A DNA stretch of 41,130 nt, from assembly GCA_013331555.1 (NCBI GenBank), contig DUGB01000001.1:4611-45740 (forward strand), written 5' to 3'. Below the pieces are notes generated by a model, which saw only the letters and a list, made by a program, of their open reading frames with translations, was not told where the DNA came from and searched no databases. Origin of the DNA: Candidatus Woesearchaeota archaeon. Lineage in GTDB: Archaea > Nanobdellota > Nanobdellia > Woesearchaeales > GW2011-AR9. Position numbers and translations under genes: made by a program. Below are positions 2,740 to 34,823 of the stretch, in pieces (positions within the stretch are counted from its first letter, which is position 1; each line of letters starts with the position of its first letter).

Positions 2740-2762
2740 ATCGTCTTCTTTTCAAAAGTAAT

Positions 2763-3170: not shown

Positions 3171-3191
3171 AGAATTATGGAGCATAACCGT

Positions 3192-3674
3192 TTACATTCT
3201 CTGCAATTCTTTTACTTTCGCTAATACGTCCGCAGCGTGGTCTTTGACATTAACATCCCGCCAGATCCAAGCAATTTTGCCTTGCGGATTGAGAAGAAAC
3301 GTGGTGCGGAGAACACTGAGGTATTCTCGACCCATGAACTTTTTCTTGCCCCAGACGTTGTATTGTTCAAGAACAGTATGTTTTTCATCGCTTAAAAGAG
3401 TGATGTGATTCAATTTTTGTTTTTCAAAGAATTTACAATGGCTTTTCGGTGAATCTGGACTGATCCCAAAGACCGGAGCTTTTTGCTTGACGAATTCAGA
3501 ATATAATTTTGTGAAGTCTTGTGCTTCGATCGTACAACCAGGAGTATCATCTTTAGGGTAAAAGTAAAGCACAAGCCAGTTGCCTTGAAGAGCTTTTTCT
3601 AAAGAAATAGGATCATTATCCCTATTGGGAAGAGTAAAGAGTGGTGCTTTACTGCCAATGGTAAGTTCGGTCAT
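3192..3674 (-). CDS. bcp: Peroxiredoxin, Bcp-type thiol peroxidase
   Basis: Motif FYPKDDTPGCTIEA contains the peroxidatic Cys. The start was moved to the internal ATG at 3674 (MTELTIGSKAP...) because the 20 upstream codons of the tracked ORF look non-coding. Confidence 0.85.
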   Translation of the reverse strand: MTELTIGSKAPLFTLPNRDNDPISLEKALQGNWLVLYFYPKDDTPGCTIEAQDFTKLYSEFVKQKAPVFGISPDSPKSHCKFFEKQKLNHITLLSDEKHTVLEQYNVWGKKKFMGREYLSVLRTTFLLNPQGKIAWIWRDVNVKDHAADVLAKVKELQRM

Positions 3675-3763
3675 TCTATTATTAGCGATCGTGTGGAGAT
3701 ATATAAAGATTGAGCTTAGTCTTAATAACAACATTTATATTTTGTAGACAATTCATTAATACT

Positions 3764-4162
3764 ATGCCTTTGTACGAAAAGAAGTGGTGGAAAAATGTTT
3801 TTAGAAAGGAAAAGAAAGCTAAATCAGCGGATACACTGTCCGATATTGAAGCCATACACGAATTCTTGCATGATTCCAAGAATGATTTGATAATGATGTT
3901 AGCTTTTCTGGAAGAATTTGAAGAGCTTGAGAAAGAAAGGGAAGTGGCGACACCAGGTATTCTTCACGTCAATTTGCAACGACAGGCAGAGGTTATGACT
4001 AAACTGCTGGAACATTATTCTTTTTTTGAAGATGATGTGGCAATCAATGGAATAAGAATAAAAGAAATGGCGAAGAAGCTGCTAAAGCATGCGGAACATG
4101 CTGGTATGCATGATCTTGTCAAGGAGAAAAAAGAAAATCCACACTGGCAAGGAAAGTGGTGA
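3764..4162 (+). CDS. Hypothetical charged/coiled-coil protein
   Basis: The ORF track gives 3710-4162. The likely start is the ATG at 3764 (MPLYEKKWW...). Lys/Glu-rich, no motif recognised. Confidence 0.45.
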   Translation: MPLYEKKWWKNVFRKEKKAKSADTLSDIEAIHEFLHDSKNDLIMMLAFLEEFEELEKEREVATPGILHVNLQRQAEVMTKLLEHYSFFEDDVAINGIRIKEMAKKLLKHAEHAGMHDLVKEKKENPHWQGKW

Positions 4163-4723
4163 CTAGCGAACGAAAACAAAATACTTTTCTTTGCCTTCAA
4201 GTTCGGATAAAATTCTTTTGATGACGACTTGTTTAGGATTAGGTATCAATTTAACACGGTTACGGATGTCGTCAAAACTCTCGAATAATTTTACTTTTCG
4301 AGCTTCAATAACTTCCCACATATGTTTTTTACCAAAACCAGGCAAGAGCTCAAGCTGGTGCATGCGCATGCTTAAAGGCTGTGCTTTGTTGAAAAAATCC
4401 AAAAAGCGCGGTTCGTCTTGAGAGACAACCTCTTCAACAGCAGTTTCAAGAGTATTACGTCCGGTGGAGGTCAGTTTTTCTGTGCCAATGCGGCCTTTAA
4501 TATGATGAATTTCATCACGCTTGCCTTCACCAATATAGACACTTTGACCTGGCTGGAGGAAAATGCCTTTCTTAGGGATGAGTTCAAGAACGGTAAGATG
4601 TGTTGTGCCAAGAGCTTGGACAATCGGTGTTTTCATCGCCGCATCATCAAAAGGATACCCATGAGGGAGAAAATCTAGCACAATGGCGTTCTCTTCACGG
4701 ACAGTTTGTTGTGGCGGGATCAT
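4163..4723 (-). CDS. DUF655-family helix-hairpin-helix nucleic-acid-binding protein
   Basis: AIVLDFLPHGYP...FLDFFNKAQPLSMRMHQLELLPGFGKKHMWEVIEAR...FESFDDIRNRV matches the family as I recall it. It sits downstream of L21e and rpoF, the conserved archaeal gene order. The gene ends in TAG. Confidence 0.8.
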   Translation of the reverse strand: MIPPQQTVREENAIVLDFLPHGYPFDDAAMKTPIVQALGTTHLTVLELIPKKGIFLQPGQSVYIGEGKRDEIHHIKGRIGTEKLTSTGRNTLETAVEEVVSQDEPRFLDFFNKAQPLSMRMHQLELLPGFGKKHMWEVIEARKVKLFESFDDIRNRVKLIPNPKQVVIKRILSELEGKEKYFVFVR

Positions 4724-12223: not shown

Positions 12224-12457
12224 ATGACAACAAAAACACTCACCATTACCGAAGATGCCTATGAACGGCTGTCAAAATACAAAAGTGCCCACGATAGCTT
12301 CAGTGATGTGATTATAAAGCATTTCCCTAAACATTCTCTTCTCGAATTGGTTGGGAGACTTACAACTAAAGAAGCAGAAGGACTGCGAAAACACGTAAAA
12401 GAGAGAAGGAGAGAATCACAAGAAAGAATGAGTGAGACAGCAAGGAGATTGCAATGA
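12224..12457 (+). CDS. vapB: VapB-type antitoxin (archaeal DUF217/UPF0330-like)
   Basis: 77 aa, KTLTITEDAYERLSKYK...SFSDVI N-terminus. A 4-nt ATGA overlap joins it to the downstream PIN gene. Confidence 0.7.
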   Translation: MTTKTLTITEDAYERLSKYKSAHDSFSDVIIKHFPKHSLLELVGRLTTKEAEGLRKHVKERRRESQERMSETARRLQ

Positions 12458-12846
12458 TCCTTGATACAAGCTTTGTTATAGACCTTATGAATAATCATCC
12501 CGAAGCAGTTTTGAAGGCACGTGAGCTCCAACAAAAAGGAGAACATACGTATATCTGTACACCAACGTTATTTGAACTATGGAGTGGCCTAGCACAAAGT
12601 AACAAACCAGTAAAAGAAAAGCAGAAAATAATGGAGATCATTTCTTCTCAGTTGGTACTCAATTTTGACAAAGAGAGTGCAGAAGAAGCTGGAAAAATAG
12701 ACGGCCTATTGAAATGTGAAGGGCAAATGATCGATCCCGAGGATAGCATGATTGCGGGGATTGCAAAACGCCATGGAGAGTGTGTCTTAACGAAGAATGT
12801 AAAACATTTTAGTCGGATAAAAACTATTTCTTGTGCAACATATTGA
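12454..12846 (+). CDS. vapC: VapC PIN-domain ribonuclease toxin
   Basis: 130 aa. MILDTSFVIDLM carries the first acidic residue, with further acidic residues in ...ELW... and ...IDPEDSMIAG.... Confidence 0.85.
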   Translation: MILDTSFVIDLMNNHPEAVLKARELQQKGEHTYICTPTLFELWSGLAQSNKPVKEKQKIMEIISSQLVLNFDKESAEEAGKIDGLLKCEGQMIDPEDSMIAGIAKRHGECVLTKNVKHFSRIKTISCATY

Positions 12847-19274: not shown

Positions 19275-20969
19275 TTACGCTTTCTGTTCGGCAGCAGCGC
19301 GATTTAATTCGCGGAAAGCGTTCTCGACATCGTCGTGGTTCCAGCCAGTATTTTGAGTAATTAATTGTTTAATCTCTTCATCCGTAGCGCCAACTTCTTT
19401 TTCTTTGCGAACCCATTGAACAAGATCATCAAAGTTATACGCCCGTGCTTGTGGTTTGATAGTATGGGCAACGACAAGAGCAACAATGATACTTAATAAC
19501 AAGACGCTGAATCCAGCAATAAAGTACACTTTGTAATTATTCCAAAGAGCGTCAAATGTGGATGCGGATTGTGGTTGTTGAACGATGGGAGGACGAGGCT
19601 GCCCTTGCAAAGGAGGAATTTGAGACGTGATGCGGACTGGTTCAGGACCTGGAACAACACTTGCTCCACAGGAATTGCTTATTACTGGTTTTCTGCCCGT
19701 AGTTCCACATTGATGCTCATCATAACATACTCTCGTTTCTTGACCGTTCTGGCAAGACTGCCAATCAGTGCAAATCCATGACTCCTGACACGGTTGACAG
19801 GTTCTGTTTTCTGTATACGTATTTGCGGTGTAAGGGCTTTTGCAGTTGTTCTGATCGGTACAACTGCGTTGCTGCTGAAGATTTTCATTACAGAATGTCC
19901 AGGAAGTACAGGTGATATTTGAGATACATCTCCATCCACTGCCACCACCGGAGCTTCCGGAACTACTAGAACCTGGGTCGAGAACTACTTGATCACATAC
20001 ATCGCCAAGGTTATCACCATCGGTGTTTTCTTGAAGAGGGTTAGGGACAGCAGGACAGTTATCTTGACCATCAGGAACACCGTCGCCATCCTGATCTTGA
20101 GCAGGAGGAAGATCACCGACACATTGACCTAGAACACATTCTTGGGTTGGTTGGCAAACATTATTACAAATACCACAATGAAATAAATCTGTTTGAAGAT
20201 CAAACTCCTCATCAATAGTGGTATCACAATCATTGTCTAGACCATCACACACTTCAAAACCTGGAGCAACGGCATTTTGACAATCTCCCCATGTTGCATC
20301 CTGCTGACAGACTTGCTGGCCTTCTTGGCATATTCCTTCATTAAAACCGCAGGCTTGTTGTTGACCAGAGGTACAAGGAAGAATTTCGATCGTAAACGTG
20401 TAATCCTCAGGAAAAAGATCATTACCTGTTTGAAGGTCATAGATAGAAGGGCGAATGAGAACATCAAATTCTTGGACAAGTAGAGCTTCAACGAAAGTTA
20501 GTTCGGCAATAGTGAACGTACCTGTTTTAAAATCTTGATCACTGAGAGTAGCATCGGCAATTGTAAGTACATTATTTTGACAAGAGATTTCTTCAAACTC
20601 GCCCCACAATTGGACTTGACGCTGAGCGGCACACAAATCAACTTGCGGATTTTGAGAGATTAATTCTATGTAAACACCATTCGTAGAAATACCCTGCTGA
20701 AGTGTTGCGGTCAGAACAAGTTTATTCCCTAACAAGCTAAGGTCAAATTCCTGACCGCTAGGAGCAGTATAAATTGCTTTTCCCACAAACTGTGAGACAA
20801 TAAACAAAAGAAGAGCAAGAACAACAACTAAGCCGAGAGAAATAAGAGTAATGATAAATGTTTTATTTGCTTCGCCGGCAGAATTATAAATTTTAGGGGG
20901 TGGGTGAGCGTGCGGTCTATAACGAACGTTTACATTCTTGTGATGTTGTTTTGCGCCACGACCATTCAT
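19275..20969 (-). CDS. Surface-operon protein G: bitopic Cys-rich protein (N-terminal anchor/signal, TSP type-3 repeat, W/C-rich repeats, C-terminal TM, cytoplasmic tail)
   Basis: TM 36-60 followed by FVGKAI. CDGLDNDCDTTIDEE (aa 241-255). DQDGDGVPDGQDNCPAVPNPLQENTDGDNLGDVCD (aa 291-326). Two CxSW/DWxxC...QxRxC units (aa 346-421). Second TM aa 481-504. Confidence 0.75.
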   Translation of the reverse strand: MNGRGAKQHHKNVNVRYRPHAHPPPKIYNSAGEANKTFIITLISLGLVVVLALLLFIVSQFVGKAIYTAPSGQEFDLSLLGNKLVLTATLQQGISTNGVYIELISQNPQVDLCAAQRQVQLWGEFEEISCQNNVLTIADATLSDQDFKTGTFTIAELTFVEALLVQEFDVLIRPSIYDLQTGNDLFPEDYTFTIEILPCTSGQQQACGFNEGICQEGQQVCQQDATWGDCQNAVAPGFEVCDGLDNDCDTTIDEEFDLQTDLFHCGICNNVCQPTQECVLGQCVGDLPPAQDQDGDGVPDGQDNCPAVPNPLQENTDGDNLGDVCDQVVLDPGSSSSGSSGGGSGWRCISNITCTSWTFCNENLQQQRSCTDQNNCKSPYTANTYTENRTCQPCQESWICTDWQSCQNGQETRVCYDEHQCGTTGRKPVISNSCGASVVPGPEPVRITSQIPPLQGQPRPPIVQQPQSASTFDALWNNYKVYFIAGFSVLLLSIIVALVVAHTIKPQARAYNFDDLVQWVRKEKEVGATDEEIKQLITQNTGWNHDDVENAFRELNRAAAEQKA

Positions 20970-20981
20970 TGATAAACCTCT

Positions 20982-21950
20982 TTATTGAGCTGATTCAAGG
21001 AAGAACTCCCGCAAGGCCCGACCGACTGCGGTAACAAGCTTGATTTTTGTGTCTCCATTAATTTTGTTATCTTGATACTGGATTAATGGCTGACCAGCTA
21101 GACAATATTCGGGAAATCCATGATCAGGACGATAACACAGGCCGTTAATAAGAGCAGTAACGCGATTAATTAAGATTTGTTTGGCGGGGAGTTTTGTACA
21201 GATACTACTTCGAGCACCGAAGTTAGTATTGGTGCAGGTGTAATCAATATCGACATATTTGCAATCTTCTGAACAGCCATCACGATTAGCACGATAGCCA
21301 TCGTCTTCAGTACTTCCATCTGCTGCACCAGTATCACACGCTTCATTTTGTTCGCCATCATCTTTAATGCCATTTTGATTTACATCGAGATACCCTACAA
21401 CACTATCACCGCAGATGGAAAGTTGGGGAACAACAGCGATACTCGGAACAGAAGCAACACCATCGATAGCAGATCCAGTCGCAGGAGTAAAGAAATTTTG
21501 GGGATCAGCTACGGCTACAAGATCAAATAGTACTCCTTGAACATCATTTTCGTTTATTCCTTGAAATTTTACATTATTAATGGTAAATAAAGATTGGGGA
21601 GCAACGCTACTCCATTCCTCTCCACTTCTTCCATGCCAACTTGTAAACAAACGGTAAGCCAGATTATTTTGGAAACGTCCAGTGAATTGATCGTTCTGAG
21701 TAAAGCGATCAGTTTTAGTATGACTTGCTTGACTAAAAAGAGGAAGTGCCGGGTTCGTGCTCATCGTTAAACTGTATTCAATCACTTTGACATCATGAGT
21801 GTTGACATTGACATTAACCGAAAAAGGAACGTCGTAGACGACTGGTTGAGGAACTGAGAAACCAACGTCAACATTCTCTGCAAACACAGAAGGCAAAGAC
21901 AGACAAAAAATACTGATTAATAGGAATAAGATTAAATGTTGTGTTTTCAT
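20982..21950 (-). CDS. Surface-operon protein F: secreted protein with Myxococcus-type cysteine-rich repeat
   Basis: The start was set at the ATG at 21950 (MKTQHLILFLLISIFCLSLPSVFA signal peptide), overlapping the stop of gene E (ATGA). Repeat: CGDSVVGYLDVNQNGIKDDGEQNEACD...DGCSEDC. Paralog of 23204-24133. Confidence 0.75.
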   Translation of the reverse strand: MKTQHLILFLLISIFCLSLPSVFAENVDVGFSVPQPVVYDVPFSVNVNVNTHDVKVIEYSLTMSTNPALPLFSQASHTKTDRFTQNDQFTGRFQNNLAYRLFTSWHGRSGEEWSSVAPQSLFTINNVKFQGINENDVQGVLFDLVAVADPQNFFTPATGSAIDGVASVPSIAVVPQLSICGDSVVGYLDVNQNGIKDDGEQNEACDTGAADGSTEDDGYRANRDGCSEDCKYVDIDYTCTNTNFGARSSICTKLPAKQILINRVTALINGLCYRPDHGFPEYCLAGQPLIQYQDNKINGDTKIKLVTAVGRALREFFLESAQ

Positions 21951-23182
21951 TGTGCTCCCTCCATTACGTAGGGACAATTTTCATGGTTAAATGTGTATGT
22001 CAACGTACCAAAGCCGTACAGTATATTCTCTCCCACAACCCGATAAGAAGAGTCGTCGCAAACATAAAATTTGTTGCTATTATAAGAGCAAGGAAGCTGG
22101 TTTGCTTCACCACACGTCACAGTGTTGATAGAATCACGTGTTTTGTAGACGATATCAGCGTCTTGTCCATCATACTTTTGATCTCCATTAAGATCAGCAT
22201 TGAATATTACACTACCTTGAGCATCACAAAGTCCAGGAATCACATTACACAACTGACGGCAGTCATCATTCCCTTGACAGAATTGAGTTACACCAGCGAT
22301 GTCAACTGGAGGACATTCCCCTCCATCATTAGGACATTCATCACGAGTGATAAATCCAAAATCCGTTTTACATTGCTCGGCAGTACATTGAACAGGTGGT
22401 TGTTGTTCTTGCTCGCAACCATCATTAAGATTATTGTTTGCATCTTTCCATTCCGCGTCACAAACACAAGCAAGATTAGTTAACAAGGCATGATCCCCAC
22501 ACGCTGTTTGATCGCAAACATCACCAAATGAATCTCCATCTTGATTAGCTTGATCCGGATTAGAAAGTACTTGACAATTATCAACAACATCAAATATACC
22601 ATCACTATCGACATCTTTTGCGGGTGCTCCACCGACAACAGAAAGAGCTATATCTTCAGGCAGAGCAGAGATGATATTTCTTTTATTAGAATATACGCTC
22701 ATGGCATCAAAATGAAAACTGACTTCCTCAACACTTGGAACTGTGAATTGAATCACAGCAAGTTCAACTCGACCAGGACCAGAAGGAGGAGTACTCGCAA
22801 GGTTTAGAATCCCCGCATCGAGCACCAACTTTGTATCCATACAATAGGTTCTTTGAATATCATACACGGGCGGAATAACAACATCAACGCTTGGTTCCCC
22901 ACCATGACACAGTTCTATTACTGGTGAAGATAATGCAACAAGAAAACTTTCTGCTCGTTCTCTTTCCTCCAAAAGAACAGTAATAGAAACTTTTCCAAGG
23001 GCATCAACTTTCAACTCTTGAGATGCGGAAATACCAGCAATGGCTTTACCAACAAATGGACGACCAAGAAATAGAGATAGTATTAATACCACCACCATTA
23101 CAAGAACTACTACACTAATAATAGCTACCTGGCGACGACGCTGTGGATCAACTGGAGCCGTTTCGAAACGTGTATTTACCAT
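21947..23182 (-). CDS. Surface-operon protein E: N-terminally anchored protein with TSP type-3 repeat and dockerin-like plus 4-Cys module
   Basis: TM 20-40 followed by FVGKAI. DVDSDGIFDVVDNCQVLSNPDQANQDGDSFGDVCD (aa 190-224). DLNGDQKYDGQDADIV...CGEANQLPCSYNSNKFYVCDDSSY (aa 329-380). Paralog of 24135-25133. Confidence 0.75.
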   Translation of the reverse strand: MVNTRFETAPVDPQRRRQVAIISVVVLVMVVVLILSLFLGRPFVGKAIAGISASQELKVDALGKVSITVLLEERERAESFLVALSSPVIELCHGGEPSVDVVIPPVYDIQRTYCMDTKLVLDAGILNLASTPPSGPGRVELAVIQFTVPSVEEVSFHFDAMSVYSNKRNIISALPEDIALSVVGGAPAKDVDSDGIFDVVDNCQVLSNPDQANQDGDSFGDVCDQTACGDHALLTNLACVCDAEWKDANNNLNDGCEQEQQPPVQCTAEQCKTDFGFITRDECPNDGGECPPVDIAGVTQFCQGNDDCRQLCNVIPGLCDAQGSVIFNADLNGDQKYDGQDADIVYKTRDSINTVTCGEANQLPCSYNSNKFYVCDDSSYRVVGENILYGFGTLTYTFNHENCPYVMEGAQ

Positions 23183-23203
23183 CTATTTTTCACACACTTT
23201 TTT

Positions 23204-24133
23204 TTAATTTATTTCGTAATATTCGAGGAGTACTTCTCTCAACAATGGTACTTGCCGAGCAATGCTTTTTTCTGTGACGCAAAAACCACCATTTTCAAAA
23301 GTGATAGCGTCAGGATGCCCAACATAAGGAAAACAGGAAGGTTTTTGATCGCTAACATCAGCAGGAATGTTGAAAATAGCATTAAGCTTAGCAAGCAAAC
23401 GGTCTTGTGCTAACAGTGGTTGAAGAGTACAATCTCGTGAACCAAAATCACAAGCGAATTTAGAAGCTAAACTGGTTTGCCCTTGAATTTTATGAGTTGA
23501 TTTGATATAACGACAGTCAGCGGAACAACCATCTCCACCAAGAAGCGCAGGATCACAGGCTTCATTATTTTCAGATGATTGCTTAATCCCATCTTGGTTT
23601 GAATCAACATATCCAACAACCCCATCACCGCAGAGAGAAAGCTGAGGTATAACAACCGTGCTATCTTGACTTGTAATCGTAAAATCAACGCCAGATTGAG
23701 CAGCAGTCAACATCTTCTGGGGAACACTACGAAGAATGAATGTGAACCCACCATCTAAAGTCCCCGAAACACGAACGTTACTCAATGTTAAAAGATTACT
23801 AGGAGCAGCTGTTGCCAGAGTGTTTCCATTCGTTTCTGTCCTGACACGATAATACAAACCATTCTCTTGAGGACCTGAAAGACCTCCAACCAATTGAAAT
23901 TGATCGACCCGTTGAACTCCTGGCGAGAATAACGCTTTTCCGTTATTGGTACCAACAGAAAGGTCATAATCAATGAACGAAACACCATGTGAATTTACGT
24001 GTAGTTGCACGGGAAATGGTACATCGTACACAATTTTTTCAGGGATGGAAAACGTAAAGTCTGCGTCAGCAGCTATTGCTAGCGGAGCAAAAAATAATAA
24101 CAATAATGGTATGATTAAGAGTTTCTGGTTCAT
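23204..24133 (-). CDS. Surface-operon protein D: secreted protein with Myxococcus-type cysteine-rich repeat
   Basis: The start was set at the ATG at 24133 (MNQKLLIIPLLLLFFAPLAIA signal peptide). Repeat: CGDGVVGYVDSNQDGIKQSSENNEACDPALLGGDGCSADC. The N-domain FSIPEKIVYDVPFPVQLHVNSHGVSFIDYDL resembles gene F. Confidence 0.75.
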   Translation of the reverse strand: MNQKLLIIPLLLLFFAPLAIAADADFTFSIPEKIVYDVPFPVQLHVNSHGVSFIDYDLSVGTNNGKALFSPGVQRVDQFQLVGGLSGPQENGLYYRVRTETNGNTLATAAPSNLLTLSNVRVSGTLDGGFTFILRSVPQKMLTAAQSGVDFTITSQDSTVVIPQLSLCGDGVVGYVDSNQDGIKQSSENNEACDPALLGGDGCSADCRYIKSTHKIQGQTSLASKFACDFGSRDCTLQPLLAQDRLLAKLNAIFNIPADVSDQKPSCFPYVGHPDAITFENGGFCVTEKSIARQVPLLREVLLEYYEIN

Positions 24134-24134
24134 C

Positions 24135-25133
24135 TTACTGTCCTCCACCAATATATGCTGCGGTATCCTGATAAGGGCAGGAATGAGCACCATCAAAGAT
24201 ATATCCTTTGTAACCATCAACACGGAAAGAACTATCATCACAGGTTCTTGTACCTGCAAAATTACAAGGTGCTAAGTTAATATTACCACACTCTTCACGA
24301 ACTTTTGCTTCTGCTATTTTGAGGATGATAAACGCATCTTGACCATCAACTTTAGCATCACCATTGATATCAACAGTATACCCGAAACGACTTCCTACAT
24401 CAGTACAGAGCGCAGTTTTTTGAGGAACAGTTAACTTTTGATTAAGACCTGCCTGATCTAATGATCCTAGCCAGCTTTGACAAAGAGTTTCTTGATTTGT
24501 ATCAAACCAGGGCTGACAGGTAGCATCATTAGCCTGACAACTTACTTGCTCCGCAATAGGATTTTTAATGAACTGAATAAGATTAGCATGCGGAGGATTA
24601 AGATTAGGAATTGTAAAGACTACAAATTGAATCTGTCGTAGTTGATCTTCAGTAGGAATACTACCCCCTACTACTGTAAAAGGAATTGAAGCAATAGCAA
24701 TATCTGACCCAGTGATAATTCTGGCCGGGTCTAACGTCGCATGATGAAATAAAAGTTTATTACCACTGATCTCTCGACGAAGATAGGCGGTTTGATCGTC
24801 AGTAAACGGAAGCTGAAGTTGAATTTCACTTGGATTAACACTAAACGCAGAAGGAAATTCTAACTCAAAGTAAACCTCTGACGCTTGAGCAGTACCAAGA
24901 TGAGCAGCGACGGGAAAAAGAAACTGGCTTCCTTGCTGCAAATCAGAGAGTTGCCCACGAAATCCAGCAGTTCCAGAAACTCCTTGCTCTTGAGTAAAAA
25001 ATGCTTGCCCTGCGGAACGAAAACCAACAAAGTACACGATCACAATCAGAAGGACAACCAAAACAATGCCAACTAAGGCAATGACGGCAGGCCGTGCTTG
25101 GGCCTTCATTTTTTTAGGGAGTGCGGAAGCCAT
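24135..25133 (-). CDS. Surface-operon protein C: N-terminally anchored protein with dockerin-like plus 4-Cys module
   Basis: TM 16-37 followed by SAGQAF. DINGDAKVDGQDAFIILKIAEAKVREECGNINLAPCNFAGTRTCDDSSF (aa 255-303). Confidence 0.75.
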   Translation of the reverse strand: MASALPKKMKAQARPAVIALVGIVLVVLLIVIVYFVGFRSAGQAFFTQEQGVSGTAGFRGQLSDLQQGSQFLFPVAAHLGTAQASEVYFELEFPSAFSVNPSEIQLQLPFTDDQTAYLRREISGNKLLFHHATLDPARIITGSDIAIASIPFTVVGGSIPTEDQLRQIQFVVFTIPNLNPPHANLIQFIKNPIAEQVSCQANDATCQPWFDTNQETLCQSWLGSLDQAGLNQKLTVPQKTALCTDVGSRFGYTVDINGDAKVDGQDAFIILKIAEAKVREECGNINLAPCNFAGTRTCDDSSFRVDGYKGYIFDGAHSCPYQDTAAYIGGGQ

Positions 25134-25137
25134 GGGT

Positions 25138-26109
25138 TTATTGGACAGACCATAATGAACGGATAATTGACATTAAGCGTGTTAAAAATCCAACGGGAGG
25201 TGCTGATGAACTATCAATTGCACCCTGATTTTCTGCTACCGCAGCTTGAATCTGTTGGTTGAGCTGTTGTGATTTTGTTGGTGCGGCAGTTAGTTGACAG
25301 ACATTATTAACAAGTACTTCACCGTCTGGACAAGATTGTTGAGTAGTTTGACATGTATTGGCAACATTACATACTTGACCATCAGGACAACCAGTAGCAG
25401 GAACAACAGTATTTCCAGGACAAGCAACGCCACCGACACAAGCGGTGGCGGGAACAGAAGTACAAGGCACTTCGGTTGCTACACAAACATTATCAGTATT
25501 ACAACTCTGACCAGTAGGACAACCGATTGGAGCGACAACAGTATTCCCAGGACAAGCCACGCCACCGACACAAGCGGTAGCGAGAACAGAAATACAAGGA
25601 GCTTCAACTGTAACTGAAAGAGCGGTAGCAGATAATTGAAAGATAGGGGTTTTGTCTGTATCTCTCTGACTAAAGAGTCTATTAACAACGCTTCGAGAAG
25701 TATCTATCATAATACTATCAGACGTGGTTGCGACTCCTCTAAGAACAAAGACTTGTTTATCCGTTGTGCTTAGTTTAGGATCACTATCTGTTCCCGTAGG
25801 AATTTTAAAGTGCCAAACTGCACCATTCTCTTCGGCTTGATTTGGTAATGGAGTTCGAGAGGGGAACCAATGATCAGAACCAGTACGCTGACCATTACTA
25901 AAAACAACATTACCATTTTGACTTTTGACATAAAAATCAAAATTTTGAACACGTTGATTTTTTGAATCCAAAGAGATTGTCATCTCAAATAGAGTGTTAG
26001 CTTGAATTGAAGCTGAACCAGTAATTTTAACATCAACCGGATCAAGAGCGAGAGAAAATGTTGAAAGTAAAACGAGCAGAGACACAAAAATAAATAATAT
26101 CTTTTTCAT
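25138..26109 (-). CDS. Surface-operon protein B: secreted protein with two 44-aa Cys-rich tandem repeats
   Basis: Signal peptide MKKILFIFVSLLVLLSTFSLA. Strong SD aggagg upstream. Repeats PC(I/T)SV.ATACVGGVACPGNTVV...GCP.GQ.CN...C at aa 171-258, also visible as a DNA repeat of about 132 nt. Confidence 0.75.
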   Translation of the reverse strand: MKKILFIFVSLLVLLSTFSLALDPVDVKITGSASIQANTLFEMTISLDSKNQRVQNFDFYVKSQNGNVVFSNGQRTGSDHWFPSRTPLPNQAEENGAVWHFKIPTGTDSDPKLSTTDKQVFVLRGVATTSDSIMIDTSRSVVNRLFSQRDTDKTPIFQLSATALSVTVEAPCISVLATACVGGVACPGNTVVAPIGCPTGQSCNTDNVCVATEVPCTSVPATACVGGVACPGNTVVPATGCPDGQVCNVANTCQTTQQSCPDGEVLVNNVCQLTAAPTKSQQLNQQIQAAVAENQGAIDSSSAPPVGFLTRLMSIIRSLWSVQ

Positions 26110-26123
26110 CTTTTTTTTCCTCC

Positions 26124-28685
26124 TTAACAGGTAAAACTGTCGAAATCGTAGACACCACTATCGCAGGCATAGGTGTCTCCATAGGAACATGTTTGTTGGC
26201 CTGCTCCGCCACAATTAGAATTGCTTTGAGCCAAGATGGCATATTGTAAAGCCAGCACATCAGCATCAGTAACAACCCCATCATTATTAACATCTGCACT
26301 TGCGGGTAATGTTCCTTCACACATAAAGCTTTCGAAATCGTAGACACTATCATCACACGCGAATGTATCCCCATAAGAACAAGTTTCCTGACTGGCTCCG
26401 CCACAATTAGAATTGCCTTGAGCTAAGATTGCGTATTGTAAAGCTAGCACATCAGCATCACTTACAGAACTATCACTATTAATATCACCAGTTCCAGTTG
26501 ATGGCGCTGCACCTTCCCAGCTTCCCGCAGTACATTGATATTGAGCAGTATTATCTTGAGTTTGGTCAGCAGTACAACTTGGAGTTTGGGGATCTTTATT
26601 ACACTGCGTCGCAGAACAACAACGTTTTTGTCCATTTGTTCCCGGAATTGTATCTTTACAACTTAAACCAGTGCGACAGTCGCTGTCTTGTGTGCAAGTC
26701 CATGATTCTCTTGCTTTCCAAGATCCTGCTTCACACCAAAATTTCGCGTACAGAGGATCTGGCTGAGCTGGAAATATATTTGCTCCGCCATCTTGACAAT
26801 AAATTGTGGCATTGACATTATATTTTATACCAGAGCCAGTACATTCTTCAATAGGACAACAGCGTTTTGGATACGTTACAGGATCACTTCCTGGAATGTA
26901 GCTTTCACAAGCCAGATTATCAGTGTCGTCTTTACAATCAGATGTTTCTTGACATACGCCGCCTTTGCTCACTGTTCCTGTTCCTCTCTGTTCCCATTGA
27001 CCTTCACGACAGATGAAATTAGTAGTAAAAGTATAATCTCGATCACAATCTGAATTCTCTGAACCATCCCAATTACACAGAGCATTACTAGAGCAACACA
27101 ATTTTTGACCATTGGAATCTGGAGCAGGGTCTTTACACGTTAATCCGACACCACAATCTGCCGTAATATCACACTCTGAATTCAAAGGTTGTGGGTTTGA
27201 TGCCCATTGACCAGCTTGGCAGATGTACCGTTTATATTCAGGAGTATTAATAGATATGCCATCAGCAACACAGCCGACGACTTGAGCACTAGCTTCGTGA
27301 GCATTACATTCATTTGGGAGACAACACTTCAACGTGTTTGGTTCATTATCAGTATCGGTTGGTGGAACAGACTTACAGAATAAACCAAGGGCACAATTAG
27401 AATCTGTGGGAAAATCAGAATAACGTTCACATTGTCCCCCATTTTGTTGAACTGCTCCAACGATGGGTCGCCAGACACCAATTCTGTCAACAACACGACA
27501 AACTTTTGTTTGATCATCATTTTGTGTACCTGCTGCAACACACTTGCCTTCTGCAGAACCATCATTACACCAGTTTTCCGGACAGCACAAACTTGCATCA
27601 CTTTCATCAGAAACGTGGCAATAACCATTATAATCGTACTCTTCTCCATTAGGAAGTTGGAGTCTATCATCTGCACATTGGCCCGCAGCAGTGCAAGGCA
27701 GATTATAGCGAACAGAGACACAAGCGCTTTCTTCATCTACCTCACTATCACAATCATTATCTTGTTGGTCGCAAATTTCTGTGGAAGGTATGCACGCAGG
27801 AACGACCCATTCCCCTGATTGACAAATCCTGTTATTAAGATCATTAACAGTTCCTTCTGCAACACATTCATTACCGCCAGGACCATCATTACATTTGTTC
27901 GCAGGACAGCATAATTTTTGATCAGGCACTGTTTGGTCAATAGTATGATCATCAGTAGATTTACAGATCAAACCAGAACTGCAAAAACCAGTAGAAGTAC
28001 AAGCTTGATTTTCTTTAGGGCACGCGATATCCTCATCAACTTTTCCGTCGCAATCATTATCTCGTTGATCACAGATCTCAGTAGAAGGAGTACAGGAAGT
28101 CGCAGAAACACACATCTTTGTAGACGCACATGAAGTACCAGCGACACAATCGGCGCTCTTTACACACAACCCTTCATTAGCATTACATAATTCACCAGTA
28201 AGACCTTTTTTGAATGTACAATAACTGGTATAACCGTTACATTTTTCGACAACTTTAGTAAGTTGAGTTCGAGGGAAACATACTTTTTCAACACAGACAT
28301 TGCCAGCAGCAACACAAGCTGTTGGAAGTCCTTTACCTGGAGGGACACAAGAAAGAGTTAATCTAGCTTGAATGAGAGAGTTCATAGAGATTGGACATTC
28401 ATTGTTAACACAACGACCGACTTTTGTTTCACACACTAAACTTAAAAGAGAATTAGATTGAGTTGAACTAGTACAGACTTGCCCTGCAAAAGAACATTTC
28501 GCTGCCGTCGCTTGCCCGGCAAGCGTTTTTCCGGAAGAAGCAACATAGATGATGACTAAAACAAGAATAACAGCAAGACCAAGACCAATTCCCATCCAGA
28601 GTTTATGTTTGTCGAAGGAAGGTTTTGAAGACGAAGAAGAGAGGACATTCTGACGAGAAGACTGTTTAGAGGCTTTTTTTTTCAT
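26124..28685 (-). CDS. Surface-operon protein A: 853-aa N-terminally anchored Cys-rich protein (six Cys modules, two CDxxDNDCD motifs, two dockerin-like plus 4-Cys modules)
   Basis: TM 30-50 followed by TLAGQAT. ICDQRDNDCDGKVDEDIAC and ICDQQDNDCDSEVDEESAC. Six units ending (K/R/L)CC....C(N/T)...C...(I/V/W/Q)C..G.W. C-terminal DINSDSSVSDADVLALQYAIL and DVNNDGVVTDADVLALQYAIL. Confidence 0.8.
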   Translation of the reverse strand: MKKKASKQSSRQNVLSSSSSKPSFDKHKLWMGIGLGLAVILVLVIIYVASSGKTLAGQATAAKCSFAGQVCTSSTQSNSLLSLVCETKVGRCVNNECPISMNSLIQARLTLSCVPPGKGLPTACVAAGNVCVEKVCFPRTQLTKVVEKCNGYTSYCTFKKGLTGELCNANEGLCVKSADCVAGTSCASTKMCVSATSCTPSTEICDQRDNDCDGKVDEDIACPKENQACTSTGFCSSGLICKSTDDHTIDQTVPDQKLCCPANKCNDGPGGNECVAEGTVNDLNNRICQSGEWVVPACIPSTEICDQQDNDCDSEVDEESACVSVRYNLPCTAAGQCADDRLQLPNGEEYDYNGYCHVSDESDASLCCPENWCNDGSAEGKCVAAGTQNDDQTKVCRVVDRIGVWRPIVGAVQQNGGQCERYSDFPTDSNCALGLFCKSVPPTDTDNEPNTLKCCLPNECNAHEASAQVVGCVADGISINTPEYKRYICQAGQWASNPQPLNSECDITADCGVGLTCKDPAPDSNGQKLCCSSNALCNWDGSENSDCDRDYTFTTNFICREGQWEQRGTGTVSKGGVCQETSDCKDDTDNLACESYIPGSDPVTYPKRCCPIEECTGSGIKYNVNATIYCQDGGANIFPAQPDPLYAKFWCEAGSWKARESWTCTQDSDCRTGLSCKDTIPGTNGQKRCCSATQCNKDPQTPSCTADQTQDNTAQYQCTAGSWEGAAPSTGTGDINSDSSVSDADVLALQYAILAQGNSNCGGASQETCSYGDTFACDDSVYDFESFMCEGTLPASADVNNDGVVTDADVLALQYAILAQSNSNCGGAGQQTCSYGDTYACDSGVYDFDSFTC

Positions 28686-28734: not shown

Positions 28735-28774
28735 TTTTTGTTTTTGATTTCCGTCGAGAAAGAGAAGAAAAATA

Positions 28775-29015
28775 CGCCGAGGCTGGGACTTTCAGGCCAC
28801 CTTTCTTTACACTACATTTGGTGCAGCTCACAAAATAAAGCATCCGGCTTCATTTGTGCGCCAAAGTGATTGTTATCACTTTGTGCGTTGTAAAAGATGA
28901 CTTTTGAACCCAGATACCCTTGCGGGAACTAGCTTACGTTCCAGGCAAAATAATTTTTTGAAATATTTTGCGGATGATAGCAGGCTAGCGCACTACCAGA
29001 TTATGCGACCTCGGC
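28775..29015 (-). tRNA. tRNA-Ser(GCU) with two introns (43 nt at or near 37/38, 28935-28977; 114 nt in the T-loop at about 59/60, 28789-28902)
   Basis: Hand-folded cloverleaf: acceptor GCCGAGG/CCUCGGC (7 Watson-Crick bp), U8, D arm GCAU-AAUCUGGUA-GUGC, anticodon stem CUAGC/GCUAG, loop CUGCUA(A), long variable arm UUCCCGCAAGGGUAU (GCAA loop), T stem CUGGG/CCCAG with UUCAAA|U, and G73. Exon plus intron lengths sum exactly to 241 nt. A TATA box lies 26 nt upstream and a T-run downstream. Confidence 0.85.
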
Positions 29016-29040
29016 ATTGGTATGCAGAGGAAAGGACTTG

Positions 29041-29050
29041 TTATTTAAAC
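29041..29050 (-). promoter_or_regulatory. TATA box of the tRNA-Ser gene
   Basis: gtttaaataa on the minus strand, 26 nt upstream of tRNA position 1 (29015). Confidence 0.5.
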
Positions 29051-29116
29051 TTTACGAGAAATATCAAAGAAAGAGAAGCAATACAAGATGGAAAAGAAAA
29101 AGAGAGATAAAAAAAG

Positions 29117-29521
29117 TTATTCGGATAGTGGAGTTGCTGCGTTAGAAACTGCACCTGCTCGATGGATGCGCGCAAAATAAGGAACAGCAACAACATAGTC
29201 TTCACCAAAGCCAGCAATATCTCCATCAATAGCCTCACATGTTTTACGAAGCTTAGAAACTGCACGCTTCAATTCGACAAGATCTTTATCTTTTAATGGT
29301 TTAATGTTAACGAGAGCAATGGTTGACCCTTCACGAAGGACATCAAGGATTTCTTTAATATCTTCAAATTCTTCAATGACAAAACGACGAACATTAACTT
29401 TTCCTTTATCATCACGCTCGCTGCCAGTTGAAACCTCAACGTAACTATTCATTGCCTCATCATCTTCTGGCTCTACGGGACGATTAAACCTTTCTTTTAT
29501 GCGCAACAAAAAATCTTTCAT
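29117..29521 (-). CDS. sepF: SepF (DUF552) cell-division protein, FtsZ anchor
   Basis: 134 aa, VNVRRFVIEEFEDIKEILDVLREGSTIALVNIKPLKDKDLVELKRAVSKLRKTCEAIDGDIAGFGEDYVVAVP. Confidence 0.8.
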   Translation of the reverse strand: MKDFLLRIKERFNRPVEPEDDEAMNSYVEVSTGSERDDKGKVNVRRFVIEEFEDIKEILDVLREGSTIALVNIKPLKDKDLVELKRAVSKLRKTCEAIDGDIAGFGEDYVVAVPYFARIHRAGAVSNAATPLSE

Positions 29522-31076: not shown

Positions 31077-31787
31077 GGAGGTTATTTTATTTTTTCCTTG
31101 TATTTAAAGCCTTCGTTTTCGGAAAGAATGAAATGAGCCACTGGACAAGCTTGGGTGAAGCTTATAAAGCAAATGTTCTTTCAAATGGATATGGAGAAGG
31201 AGAGAGCATTGGCTGTATTTCAAGATAAAAGAATAAGAAGAGTTTGGCATAACAACGAATGGTATTTCTCTGTGGTGGATGTAGTTGAAGCACTAACTGA
31301 TAGCCCTGCTCCAAGACAATACTGGGGCGTTTTAAAAGGAAGAGAAAAACAGTTGTTAACACTTTGTTTACAACTGAAATTGCTTTCGGCTGATGGCAAG
31401 AACTATGCCACAGATTGTGCTAATACGAAGAATATATTCAGAATTATTCAGTCCATTCCTTCTCCTAAAGCAGAACCATTTAAACAATGGCTGGCTCAAG
31501 TGGGTTATGAGAGAATTCAAGAAATTGAAAATCCAGAACTTGCCCAAAATCGGGTCAAAGAATATTATGAACTAAAAGGTTATCCGAAAGATTGGATAGA
31601 TAAAAGATTAAGGGGAGTCGTAATTAGGCAAGAGCTTACAGACGAATGGAGAGATCGGGGAGTTGTCGATGAAACAGATTTTGCTATTCTGACTAATGAA
31701 ATCACCAAAGCAACATTTGGAAAAACAGTTGGAGAATACCGAGAATTCAAAAGATTAACAAAGCCTAGCCAGAATCTGAGAGACCAT

Positions 31788-31846
31788 ATCCTGAGAAATT
31801 CAGGGAATTTCTGGGATGCCAAAAATCACAGAGGTGATTTTTCAGC
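31788..31846 (+). repeat. 59-nt double-hairpin insertion 1
   Basis: Hairpins agaaattc-agg-gaatttct (31794-31812) and aaaaatcac-agag-gtgattttt (31821-31842). The ends are also mutually complementary (ctgagaaatt / gatttttcag). Boundary ambiguity is 2 nt (AT). Confidence 0.7.
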
Positions 31847-31876
31847 ATGACTGATTGGGAACTTATTTTTACTATG

Positions 31877-32232: not shown

Positions 32233-32802
32233 ATGGTAGATGGATTTCGAGGAGTGGTTACTTTTTTGGACACGATCGGGGTTTATGATATTGTTCTTCC
32301 ATTTTTATTAATATTTACCATTGTATTTGCCGTCCTCGACAAGACTAAGATTTTAGGTGTCGATAAGATTGATAATCGAGAATTATCAAAGAAGAATCTG
32401 AATTCGATGGTTGCGTTTGTGATGGCGTTGATTGTCATTGCATCGGCGCAATTAGTAAGGCAGATCAGCAGAATTATGGCGGATGTGGCATTGCTGCTGG
32501 TGTTGGCAATTTGCTTTTTAATGTTAGTCGGTGTGTTTTTTAAAGACGAGCAGTTTGATATTGAGAAAATTAAAGGATGGAAAGCAGTACTAGTAACGCT
32601 GATGTTCGCCGGGATTGTGATTATTTTTTTGAATGCGCTTGGATGGTTGGATTTTGTGTTCAAGCTGATTAAAAATTTCAACGCCGATTGGGCAGCAACA
32701 ACTTTATTTTTATTGATTACGGGAGGGTTTATGTACTATGTTGTACGATCTCCAAGTCCATCAGTTCCTGCAGGTGGAGAAAGTCCAAAAAAAGGAGGAT
32801 AA
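32233..32802 (+). CDS. Five-TM membrane protein, paralog 1 of 3
   Basis: 189 aa. The conserved first TM motif is VYDIVLPFLLIFTIVFAVLDKTKILG. SD gaggt upstream. Confidence 0.65.
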   Translation: MVDGFRGVVTFLDTIGVYDIVLPFLLIFTIVFAVLDKTKILGVDKIDNRELSKKNLNSMVAFVMALIVIASAQLVRQISRIMADVALLLVLAICFLMLVGVFFKDEQFDIEKIKGWKAVLVTLMFAGIVIIFLNALGWLDFVFKLIKNFNADWAATTLFLLITGGFMYYVVRSPSPSVPAGGESPKKGG

Positions 32803-32805
32803 ACA

Positions 32806-33423
32806 ATGGTCAACTATCAAGATTTAATTTATTATTTCCAGCAGTACGGCGTATTGGATTTTCTCCTGCCGTTTATTTTGGTGTTTACAGTTATCTTTGC
32901 AGTGTTGCAGAAGATAAAACCGTTTGGAAATGATGGGAAAAATTTCCATGTCATTATTGCATTTGTCTGTGGTTTATTATTTGTTGTTCCACATGTTCTC
33001 GGAACGTATCCACCAAGTTATGATCCGGTTGTGATTTTAAATAATGCTTTACCTGGCGTATCATTAATTGCCATTTTTGCAATTATGGCGTTAATTACGT
33101 TAGGCGTCTTTAACACAGAAATGGGAAATACTCTCTTACCAATTGTTGCTTTTGGATCTTTTGCGTTTGTGGCATACATCTTTGGTTCGTCACTCGGACT
33201 TTGGAGCGGACCTTATGACCTTTTCTCGTGGTGGACAGCAGATGTAACGGAATTACTGGTGATTATCGCTGTCTTTGGTGGAATAGTATATTTCATTACG
33301 AGAGAGGATAGTGACACTGAGAAAGATCCAGCAAAATTGGCAGCGGCCAAGAAGAAAGCTGATGAAAAATGGGAAGATTATAACAAAAGGCTAGGCAACA
33401 TTATTAAAAGAAGAGGAGACTAA
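32806..33423 (+). CDS. Five-TM membrane protein, paralog 2 of 3
   Basis: 205 aa, VLDFLLPFILVFTVIFAVLQKIKPFG. 3-nt spacer from paralog 1. Lys/Glu-rich C-terminal tail. Confidence 0.65.
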   Translation: MVNYQDLIYYFQQYGVLDFLLPFILVFTVIFAVLQKIKPFGNDGKNFHVIIAFVCGLLFVVPHVLGTYPPSYDPVVILNNALPGVSLIAIFAIMALITLGVFNTEMGNTLLPIVAFGSFAFVAYIFGSSLGLWSGPYDLFSWWTADVTELLVIIAVFGGIVYFITREDSDTEKDPAKLAAAKKKADEKWEDYNKRLGNIIKRRGD

Positions 33424-33440
33424 ATATTTCAGTTTAACCC

Positions 33441-33995
33441 ATGGCAACTGTCTTAGATATCGGTGGACTATTTCAAGCGTTTGATTTTGTTTTTCCATTC
33501 CTTTTTGTAACGGTTTTAGTTTTGGCAGTGTTACAAAAAACAAAAGCAATCTCCGAAAGCGCAGCAATTAATGGAATTTTGGGTGTAATCTGTGGATTTA
33601 TGATTATACTTTCCAGAACATTAATTGATTTGATTAATTTTATGATTCCCTGGTTTACGGTGGCAATTGTGTTCATCGTATTGATGTTTTTGATTTTCTC
33701 GTTATTTGGTGCGAAGGAAGCCAACTTCTTAGAAGCGTTGAAAGCTAACGATAAAACCGTTATCTGGGTCATTGTCGGCGTCGGCATTGTTATCCTTGTC
33801 GCAGGGTTAGGAAAAGTGTTAGGACAGAATATTGGTCCGTATTTAGCAAACGAAACTGGAATCACAGATGGTTCGGGTGTAGCGACAGGTAGTTTTGAAC
33901 AGAATGTAACCGCAACACTTTTTCATCCTAAAGTATTGGGGTTGTTAGTCCTCTTTGGAATAGCGATTTTTGCGGTACTGTTGCTGACGAGTTGA
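33441..33995 (+). CDS. Five-TM membrane protein, paralog 3 of 3
   Basis: 184 aa, AFDFVFPFLFVTVLVLAVLQKTKAIS. Confidence 0.65.
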   Translation: MATVLDIGGLFQAFDFVFPFLFVTVLVLAVLQKTKAISESAAINGILGVICGFMIILSRTLIDLINFMIPWFTVAIVFIVLMFLIFSLFGAKEANFLEALKANDKTVIWVIVGVGIVILVAGLGKVLGQNIGPYLANETGITDGSGVATGSFEQNVTATLFHPKVLGLLVLFGIAIFAVLLLTS

Positions 33996-34200: not shown

Positions 34201-34494
34201 ATGCCAGAAATACTTCATCACAAAACGGAACACAAACATATCCTACACTATCCCCAGTTGGATACGGTACTGATGGTTGAAAAATTTATTTATGATCATA
34301 GCGGAGAATTCAAAAAAAAATCTCTTTGGGAACACTTGCCTAAACAAATGATGTATCAAACATTTTGCGTTATTATTGACTACCTTTTGGAATCAGGAAA
34401 AATAGCGGTGGATAGTGAAGGAAAGATAGCGTGGGTTTGGGATCCTGAAGGAGTGAAACGATACTTAGCGAGGAAGGATCTCACGTGGAACTGA
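34201..34494 (+). CDS. Small protein, possible winged-helix antitoxin partner
   Basis: 97 aa. Overlaps the downstream RelE-like gene by 10 nt. No strong motif. Confidence 0.4.
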   Translation: MPEILHHKTEHKHILHYPQLDTVLMVEKFIYDHSGEFKKKSLWEHLPKQMMYQTFCVIIDYLLESGKIAVDSEGKIAWVWDPEGVKRYLARKDLTWN

Positions 34495-34823
34495 ATTCAG
34501 AAGTAAGGTTTGGTGATGAGAATCTTAAGAAAGCTTATCACGAATTGGAAGCCGGCAAGTTTGAAGATAAACAACTCAAAGAGTGGTTAGACAGAGCAGT
34601 TCAAGATTTAAAGAAAAATGCTTTTTCGGGAATTCAAATTCCAAAAAGACTCATCCCAAAAGAATATCACGCTAGATATGGTCCACTAACTAACGCTTGG
34701 AAGTATAACTTGCCTAATGCTTGGAGATTGATTTACACAATCAAAAGAGATGAAGTAGTAGTTTTAAGTGTTGTTCTGGAATGGATGTCACATAAAGAAT
34801 ATGAAAGACGATTTGGATACTGA
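34485..34823 (+). CDS. RelE/ParE-superfamily toxin-like protein
   Basis: 112 aa with a GTG start. The C-terminal signature NAWKYNLPNAWRLIYTIKRDEVVVLSVVLEWMSHKEYERRFGY resembles the RelE/ParE core (W-R-x-I-Y ... H-K-x-Y). Confidence 0.5.
   Translation: MELNSEVRFGDENLKKAYHELEAGKFEDKQLKEWLDRAVQDLKKNAFSGIQIPKRLIPKEYHARYGPLTNAWKYNLPNAWRLIYTIKRDEVVVLSVVLEWMSHKEYERRFGY

Follow-up and report, generated by a model that had tools for sequence, protein, structure and literature searches.

A tRNA-Ser(GCU) gene in three pieces, with introns in the anticodon and T loops, in a Woesearchaeota-type archaeon from groundwater

Multi-intron tRNA genes of Thermoproteales and other Crenarchaeota were reportedly described by Marck & Grosjean in 2003 and by Sugahara in 2008. 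In the archaeon Haloferax volcanii, the tRNA-Trp gene carries at position 37/38 a 105-nt intron that is bounded by a bulge-helix-bulge (BHB) motif and contains a C/D-box sRNA. Up to three introns per tRNA occur in Thermoproteales (PMC4033280, PMC8450103), positions 59/60 and 29/30 are listed hot spots of non-canonical introns (PMC4090602), and the presence of similar introns in different tRNA backgrounds of Crenarchaeota has led to the suggestion of transposition (PMC4090602, PMC4033280). Cleavage by EndA at the bulges, followed by ligation and circularization by RtcB, is established archaeal tRNA biology (review PMC4090602). The epsilon2 EndA of the DPANN lineage ARMAN-2 cleaves a 59/60 intron in vitro (PMC3239211). 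A survey that analysed one Woesearchaeota genome with tRNAscan-SE 2.0 found increased tRNA disruption in DPANN, associated the L3-loop EndAs of this group with disrupted tRNA genes, and predicted 'unidentified disrupted tRNA genes' in it (Kaneta 2018, PMC5829648). DPANN were not among the training groups of the BHB models of tRNAscan-SE, which were Crenarchaeota, Euryarchaeota and Thaumarchaeota (PMC8450103).

Here we analysed a locus at positions 28775–29015 (minus strand) of a 41,130-nt stretch of archaeal DNA, the whole of which is called the window below. We found that it holds a serine tRNA gene in which two introns separate three pieces; the archaeon that carries it is uncultivated and comes from groundwater. 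A preliminary description of the locus had pointed to introns at 59/60 in Crenarchaeota and ARMAN as precedents, which is correct (PMC4090602, PMC3239211).

Identity and setting of the three-exon gene

Exon 1 (28978–29015, minus strand, 38 nt, GCCGAGGTCGCATAATCTGGTAGTGCGCTAGCCTGCTA) supplies the acceptor 5' strand, the D arm, the anticodon stem 5' strand and the anticodon loop as far as A37, with the anticodon GCU at 28981–28979. A 43-nt intron follows at canonical position 37/38 (28935–28977, minus strand), with a junction ambiguity of at most 2 nt and a degenerate BHB. Exon 2 (28903–28934, minus strand, 32 nt, AGCTAGTTCCCGCAAGGGTATCTGGGTTCAAA) resumes with A38 and contains the anticodon stem 3' strand, the variable arm CCC-GCAA-GGG, the T stem 5' strand and the T loop UUCAAA to position 59, where the second intron (28789–28902, minus strand, 114 nt) interrupts the T loop at 59/60. 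Exon 3 (28775–28788, minus strand, 14 nt, TCCCAGCCTCGGCG) provides U60, the T stem 3' strand, the acceptor 3' strand and the discriminator G73, and ends with CCA not encoded.

Joining the three minus-strand exons gives an 84-nt class II tRNA-Ser(GCU) that ARAGORN calls tRNA-Ser(gct) and whose minimum free energy (MFE) fold is a class II cloverleaf at −34.8 kcal/mol (RNAfold); the G+C content of the joined exons is 58%, versus 39.5% for the window. The acceptor stem GCCGAGG/CCUCGGC has seven perfect pairs out of seven, the anticodon stem CUAGC/GCUAG closes the loop CUGCUAA (U33, GCU, A37), and the T arm reads CUGGG-UUCAAAU-CCCAG. The cloverleaf with a 7-bp acceptor stem, 5-bp anticodon and T stems and a long variable arm is that of a class II tRNA, and the universal nucleotides (U8, A14, G18G19, U33, a purine at 37 and the T loop UUCRAnY) are all present and form invariant columns in the alignment of orthologues. 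Recognition by archaeal SerRS relies on the long variable arm and G73 as serine identity features; both are found here along with the anticodon GCU, and in the aligned sequences all three are kept in every orthologue. The joined exons are a bona fide tRNA-Ser(GCU). The preliminary description had assembled the same type II cloverleaf from 29015–28978, 28934–28903 and 28788–28775 on the minus strand, and its reading holds for the coordinates, for the seven acceptor pairs, the D-arm GG and GCU with U33 and A37, and for the GCAA-closed long variable arm, the T stem CUGGG/CCCAG, the 114 nt between UUCAAA and U, and G73, with ARAGORN accepting the joined product. Its statement that the anticodon stem halves lie 43 nt apart has to be corrected to 50 nt (7-nt loop plus 43-nt intron).

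The gene is missed by standard finders, as had been anticipated: on the unspliced window ARAGORN reported no tRNA anywhere, and Rfam gave nothing in the window at gathering thresholds and nothing at the locus even at E ≤ 5. A deliberately loose three-exon detector (perfect 7-bp acceptor stem; 5-bp anticodon stem with loop NTGCTA; 5-bp T stem followed by TTCRA; intron lengths free) returned exactly one candidate in the real window, which was accepted by ARAGORN as tRNA-Ser(gct), while 40 dinucleotide-preserving shuffles of the window yielded 30 loose candidates and none that ARAGORN accepted. A generalised scan of the window for any tRNA with an interrupted T loop found this gene alone. A 68-aa antisense ORF (28904–29110, plus strand, TTG start) overlaps the tRNA exons and the promoter, as the preliminary description had noted. 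It has no Pfam match, the four contigs that span the gap from sepF to the 853-aa gene (L001–L004) have no gene listed there, and the orthologous loci differ in this region by large intron indels. The ORF is a mechanical artefact and not a gene.

The tRNA gene sits just downstream of sepF (29117–29521, minus strand), in a 430-bp gap between it and the gene of an 853-aa repeat protein (26124–28685, minus strand), with all three on the same strand. The TATA box TTTAAATA (29042–29049, minus strand), preceded by a BRE-like purine-rich GTAAAG, begins 34 nt ahead of the 5' end of the mature tRNA, with a spacer of 26 nt to +1; TATA-like boxes are found 32–35 nt upstream in 21 of the 42 orthologous genes. 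In the 3' trailer UAUUUUUCUUCUC (28762–28774, minus strand), a T-run at 28772–28768 is by its sequence likely an archaeal terminator, and T-rich trailers stand behind nearly all orthologues. Both the TATA box 26 nt upstream and the T-run after the gene had been read correctly before. Neither EndA nor RtcB is encoded among the ORFs of the window.

Further genes of the window are archaeal (ELP3, an archaeal-type ProRS, FtsZ, TGT, an ATP-dependent DNA ligase, an Rpo4/F-like protein, S6e and a DUF655 protein). An identical SepF protein is encoded on groundwater metagenome contigs, Rifle (PRJNA268031) among them, and SepF homologues at 70–80% identity carry the labels Woesearchaeota or Nanoarchaeota. 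The host is a Woesearchaeota-type (DPANN) archaeon. On all five contigs with the locus the tRNA region is 100% identical, and hence there is no within-population signal of selection.

Several other features of the window were recorded. BRO-N domains are typical of viral and mobile-element genes, and an ORF with such a domain is located at 31155–31850 (plus strand), two genes upstream of the tRNA locus, where it is adjoined by several ORFs without a Pfam match (32233–33995); this region may be a mobile or viral island. Directly downstream of the tRNA, a run of large ORFs (19275–28685, minus strand; 564, 331, 411, 351, 332, 323 and 853 aa) probably encodes secreted or surface proteins: those of 564, 411 and 853 aa match only thrombospondin-type-3, MopE-like Cu-binding and dockerin repeats, and the other four have no match in Pfam. 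A PIN-domain ORF (12454–12846, plus strand) and a ParE/YoeB-like toxin ORF (34485–34823, plus strand) are candidate toxin-antitoxin modules.

Orthologues with zero to three introns

From a SepF-based scan of species-representative genomes, which returned 80 of 538 SepF loci, a split-aware detector recovered 41 non-redundant orthologues, or 42 sequences together with that of the window. We found that the synteny of sepF and tRNA-Ser(GCU) is conserved and that four intron states occur among the orthologues: no intron (L084, L087), the anticodon intron at 37/38 alone (e.g. L007, L011, L016, L017), the T-loop intron at 59/60 alone (e.g. L014, L019, L020, L031), and both (e.g. L006, L008, L015, L053 and the window). 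Loci missed by the detector often contain an extra intron at ~29/30, within the 5' half of the anticodon stem. This intron, of ~20–45 nt, is found in L033, L045, L049, L070, L073, L076, L080 and L081; two of these, L073 and L081, combine it with introns at 37/38 and 59/60, so that the series includes at least two three-intron loci. Two further arrangements were seen: at the contig end of L042 (~2030–2071) the gene appears to be broken just behind the 5' half of the T stem, possibly at 53/54, and the anticodon region of L023 (948–1090) carries a complex insertion of ~60 nt, beyond the detector's parsing.

Covariation was assessed for 23 base pairs in 28 distinct spliced sequences. Standard pairs fill 95.2% of the cells, compensatory changes on both sides are found in 14 of the 23 pairs, and pairing is complete (100%) in the acceptor, anticodon and T stems; sliding the partners by 1–3 columns reduces pairing to 29–48%. 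Scanning metagenomes with the exon 1 subtype of the window as the query recovered three intron-free tRNA-Ser(GCU) genes in a different genomic context (L090, L098, L104), the exon 1 of which is identical over 38 of 38 nt, as well as two genes with anticodon introns of 12–13 nt (L096, L102). Intron-free orthologues score 57.4–62.6 bits on the Rfam tRNA model (gathering score 29). The joined exons of the window match the intron-free gene of L104 (62.6 bits) at 78 of 84 positions and the spliced L053 sequence at 79 of 84, and in each comparison four of the differences (out of six and five, respectively) make up two compensatory base-pair swaps. Relative to L053, one is a U-A/C-G swap in the anticodon stem, the halves of which lie on either side of intron 1, and the other a double change in the variable arm. 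Judged from these comparisons, the interrupted stems are under selection.

In the stretch examined, the intron-free tRNA-Ser(GCU) of L104 does not adjoin sepF. It belongs to a tRNA cluster (2031–4452) of Ser(GCU), Val(CAC), a 123-nt Rfam tRNA match at 3358–3480, and Leu(CAA); the 123-nt match is missed by ARAGORN and therefore probably contains an intron. In at least 9 of the 42 orthologous loci, all outside the window (L006 at 2967–3100, L011, L015, L017, L030, L041, L043, L050 and L052), what the TATA box drives is an incomplete copy of the tRNA 5' end and not the tRNA itself. The copy consists of positions 1–14 (1–27 in L041); after these come a hairpin of 7 bp, GGTCGCG, and a stretch complementary to part of the acceptor strand. 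It folds as a tRNA-like minihelix 53–130 nt upstream of the real gene. Excision of this direct repeat as a further BHB intron was discarded because identical repeats cannot form the H helix; the copy may be a leader element or a scar of recombination or integration.

Introns, processing and alternative readings

In its MFE fold (−88.1 kcal/mol), the 241-nt precursor as a whole retains the cloverleaf and forms a BHB at the T-loop intron, made up of a 5-bp helix h (the T stem), a 3-nt bulge, a 4-bp central helix H, a 3-nt bulge and a 10-bp helix h'. In H, the T-loop UUCA (positions 54–57, 28908–28905) pairs with UGAA at the intron 3' end (28794–28791) in four of four pairs. The bulges are 5' AA|A, with one extra unpaired C opposite, and 3' AG|U, and h' (28901–28892 with 28805–28796) encloses three hairpins. 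Under the canonical rule of a cut after the second bulge nucleotide, this BHB gives exactly 59|60 and a 114-nt intron, as expected of a BHB-bounded intron. The preliminary description had not been able to draw a canonical BHB by hand at either junction; that holds for the anticodon junction, and at the T loop a near-canonical one is formed in the precursor fold.

The same arrangement of H helix and bulges (UUCAAA|N ... UGAAAG|U) was found in 29 of 29 orthologous T-loop introns. With the window included, all 30 end in NGAA plus 2 nt, and H has four of four pairs in 25 and three of four in 5. Their lengths range from 14 to 114 nt, that of the window being uniquely long, and more than 20 families can be told apart among their interiors, without detectable similarity from one family to another. 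Conserved ends on otherwise unrelated intron sequences are the mark that selection for the BHB leaves. When the 114-nt intron is folded by itself, its energy is −40.3 kcal/mol (z = −5.0 versus shuffles), with a closing stem and three hairpins.

Other identities were considered for the introns and set aside. A blastn search of both introns against the window and ~100 loci gave self matches and short AT-rich noise only, and neither the 114-nt nor the 43-nt intron has a relative there that would make it recognisable by sequence as a repeated or mobile element. C/D-box sRNAs have boxes C (RUGAUGA) and D (CUGA) together with C' and D' at guide-RNA spacing. In the 114-nt intron the sole CUGA overlaps H and the best C-like box, GUGAUAA, lies 80 nt off without D'/C', leaving no workable box layout for a guide RNA, and no Rfam match exists in the locus at E ≤ 5. 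Self-splicing group I and II introns have a catalytic core of several hundred nt; at 114 and 43 nt the introns are too short for either group, and they have no Rfam match.

T-loop introns can surpass their exons in conservation, and near-identical tRNAs can differ in whether they have one. Introns of L014 and L052 match at 72 of 76 positions, while their exons match at 68 of 83 and their SepF proteins are 69% identical; in L055 and L061, with exons 99% and SepF 96% identical, one has an 86-nt intron and the other has none. L053, set beside L014 and L052, and L043, set beside L052, belong to the same set of comparisons. As a hint from a few sequence pairs, this suggests that introns at 59/60 are transferred laterally and are quickly gained or lost. 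Tentatively, and with some doubt on our part, the 59/60 site of tRNA-Ser(GCU) in Woesearchaeales might serve mobile BHB introns as a landing site, with gain, loss, replacement and lateral exchange between lineages, and the 114-nt intron would be one of them. If this were true, the series of zero to three introns could serve to work out the mechanism of BHB-intron transposition, and many tRNAs 'missing' from DPANN genomes would be hidden multi-intron genes.

The degenerate motif at 37/38 is the one real anomaly of the locus and its weak point. Intron 1 forms an 8-bp AT-rich hairpin (GCAAAAUA/UAUUUUGC), and its strict central helix H has one of four pairs, or three of four if C28937 is bulged. 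H has 3–4 of four pairs in 27 of 27 anticodon introns of relatives (e.g. H = UUGC/GCAG with bulges UA|U and AU|A), making the window unique among the 28. None of the registers within the junction ambiguity (35/36, 36/37, 37/38) improves on this H or gives a strict BHB by BHB scan and hand check, and a chance BHB, CUAG/CUGG (cuts after precursor positions 33 and 77), was rejected as it would leave a 6-nt loop. The motif is not a strict BHB and is relaxed at best, which makes the splicing of intron 1 a matter of inference. The BHB-compatible fold with the bulged C has −3.9 kcal/mol versus −14.8 for the competing MFE fold, i.e. it is 11 kcal/mol worse.

Intron 1 (UCAUCC[GCAAAAUAUUUCAAAAAAUUAUUUUGC]CUGGAACGUA) has its ends in common with the 12–17-nt mini-introns of L096 (UCAUCUGGAAGAG), L102 and L053 (UCAUUCCUAUGAUGGAG), in which exon 1 is nearly identical. 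From these common ends, it looks as if a 27-nt AT-rich hairpin was inserted into the loop of a short intron, and one C added to the 3' strand of H, GAA[C]G. With the extra C bulged, the intron regains the geometry of the GAAG-type introns (L017, L026, L030, L054 and L096) and their 3/4 helix. The preliminary description had suggested that both introns may need a relaxed-specificity endonuclease; this applies to the anticodon intron with its degenerate H and not to the T-loop intron with its near-canonical BHB.

The analysis establishes what the gene is and where its exons end, together with its conservation, its covariation, the spacing of its promoter and the 59/60 BHB, and we consider it quite likely that the locus is a functional, independently transcribed class II tRNA-Ser(GCU) gene with two protein-spliced BHB-type introns in a Woesearchaeota-type DPANN host. 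We infer its transcription and, from established archaeal tRNA biology (review PMC4090602), EndA cleavage, ligation and intron circularization; this holds most of all for the ability of the anticodon intron to be spliced. Transcription would start a few nt upstream of 29015, driven by the TATA box at 29049–29042, and would stop in the T-run after 28775. The 241-nt precursor would then fold into the cloverleaf, with UUCA pairing to UGAA and the bulges placed between the T stem and the 10-bp intron helix. EndA could cut at the AA|A and AG|U bulges of the T-loop BHB, after which an RtcB-type ligase would join position 59 to 60 and probably circularize the 114-nt intron. The 43-nt intron at 37/38 would be removed likewise, from a degenerate motif that would need an EndA of relaxed specificity. 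As no CCA is encoded, it would be added post-transcriptionally.

Alternative readings concern the identity of the gene as well as its state. That tRNA-like pieces were brought together by chance, in a region that encodes the 68-aa protein or nothing, would be in keeping with the ~0.75 candidates per shuffled window that the three-exon detector gives when used alone. But none of the 30 shuffled candidates passes ARAGORN and the real one does, the orthologues covary, exon 1 is shared in full (38/38) with intron-free tRNA genes, the exons have 58% G+C in a 39.5% G+C window, and the ORF has no Pfam match and is not called by gene finders. By covariation, Rfam scores, shuffles and pairwise comparison this reading is already refuted for practical purposes, and its probability is negligible. 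Equally minute is the chance that the 43-nt intron is spliced 3 nt further 5', to leave the loop CUGGUAA with a Thr(GGU) anticodon. ARAGORN does label the sequence from which intron 2 alone was removed as tRNA-Thr(ggt) i(36,43), but BHB plays no part in its intron placement, no BHB fits that register, the class II body and G73 are serine identity features, and the loop is YUGCUAA in every orthologue, intron-free ones included. The Thr(ggt) label on the half-spliced form is an artefact of how ARAGORN places introns.

A true orthologue could also be in decay: the hairpin and the extra C would have broken the BHB, intron 1 would be unremovable, and another gene would supply tRNA-Ser(GCU). This is where the lone 1/4 helix among 28 anticodon introns and the 11 kcal/mol gap to the MFE fold would fit, as would the intron-free genes with identical exon 1 on other metagenomic contigs (L090, L098 and L104), the context of which is different. 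Against it, all exon stems are perfectly paired, the promoter, terminator and T-loop BHB are intact at a conserved orthologous position, and the lineage of the window fixed compensatory double changes in the anticodon stem and variable arm after its split from the L053 type. Imperfect H helices are, moreover, also found in the short introns of the CUGC-loop subfamily (GAAG in L017, L026, L030, L054 and L096; AUGG in L053), so the enzyme of this lineage evidently tolerates weak helices. We therefore regard decay as unlikely and retain the reading as a functional gene.

Significance and relation to known systems

The type of gene is already known, because the 59/60 and 29/30 sites, three-intron tRNAs and a survey of tRNA disruption that included Woesearchaeota have been published; the locus is a solid fresh example and no new phenomenon. 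In the literature searched, we found no locus-level account of this gene or of its orthologue series with zero to three introns. Particular to the locus are its T-loop intron, which is long and strongly structured, the reversal of BHB quality between the two sites, the 0–3-intron series, and the hints of intron exchange.

Its practical value is in annotation, as ARAGORN and the Rfam tRNA model miss the gene entirely. Among 208 complete Nanobdellota genomes (2026), the median number of tRNAs is 35 and all 20 amino acids are covered in 96 of the 208 (bioRxiv 10.64898/2026.05.13.725050). Hidden loci like this one likely explain tRNA gaps in Nanobdellota genomes, and they speak against taking such gaps for tRNA loss or dependence on a host. 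One orthologous gene with zero to three introns within one order also constitutes a natural experiment on the gain, loss and transfer of tRNA introns.

Compared with the tRNA-Trp gene of Haloferax volcanii, the locus likewise has a long (~100 nt) BHB-bounded intron, but at 59/60 and not 37/38, and with no C/D boxes and no Rfam match in place of the guide RNA. With the multi-intron tRNAs of Crenarchaeota it shares the combination of 37/38 with non-canonical sites, BHB introns numbering up to three, and a BHB that is often relaxed (PMC4090602, PMC4033280). It differs from them in its host, a mesophilic DPANN archaeon and not a TACK hyperthermophile, and in its EndA, which is presumably of another type than the Crenarchaeal (alpha-beta)2 enzyme with the Crenarchaeal loop. 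The usual Crenarchaeal pattern is also reversed here, with the relaxed BHB at the canonical site and the near-strict one at the non-canonical site. The locus is a disrupted DPANN tRNA gene of the kind that Kaneta 2018 predicted (PMC5829648). ARMAN-2 (Ca. Micrarchaeum) is likewise a DPANN lineage with T-loop introns at 59/60, but its intron has 13 nt and a relaxed hBH motif, whereas the one described here is 114 nt long, strongly structured, and bounded by a near-canonical hBHBh' (Fujishima 2011, PMC3239211).
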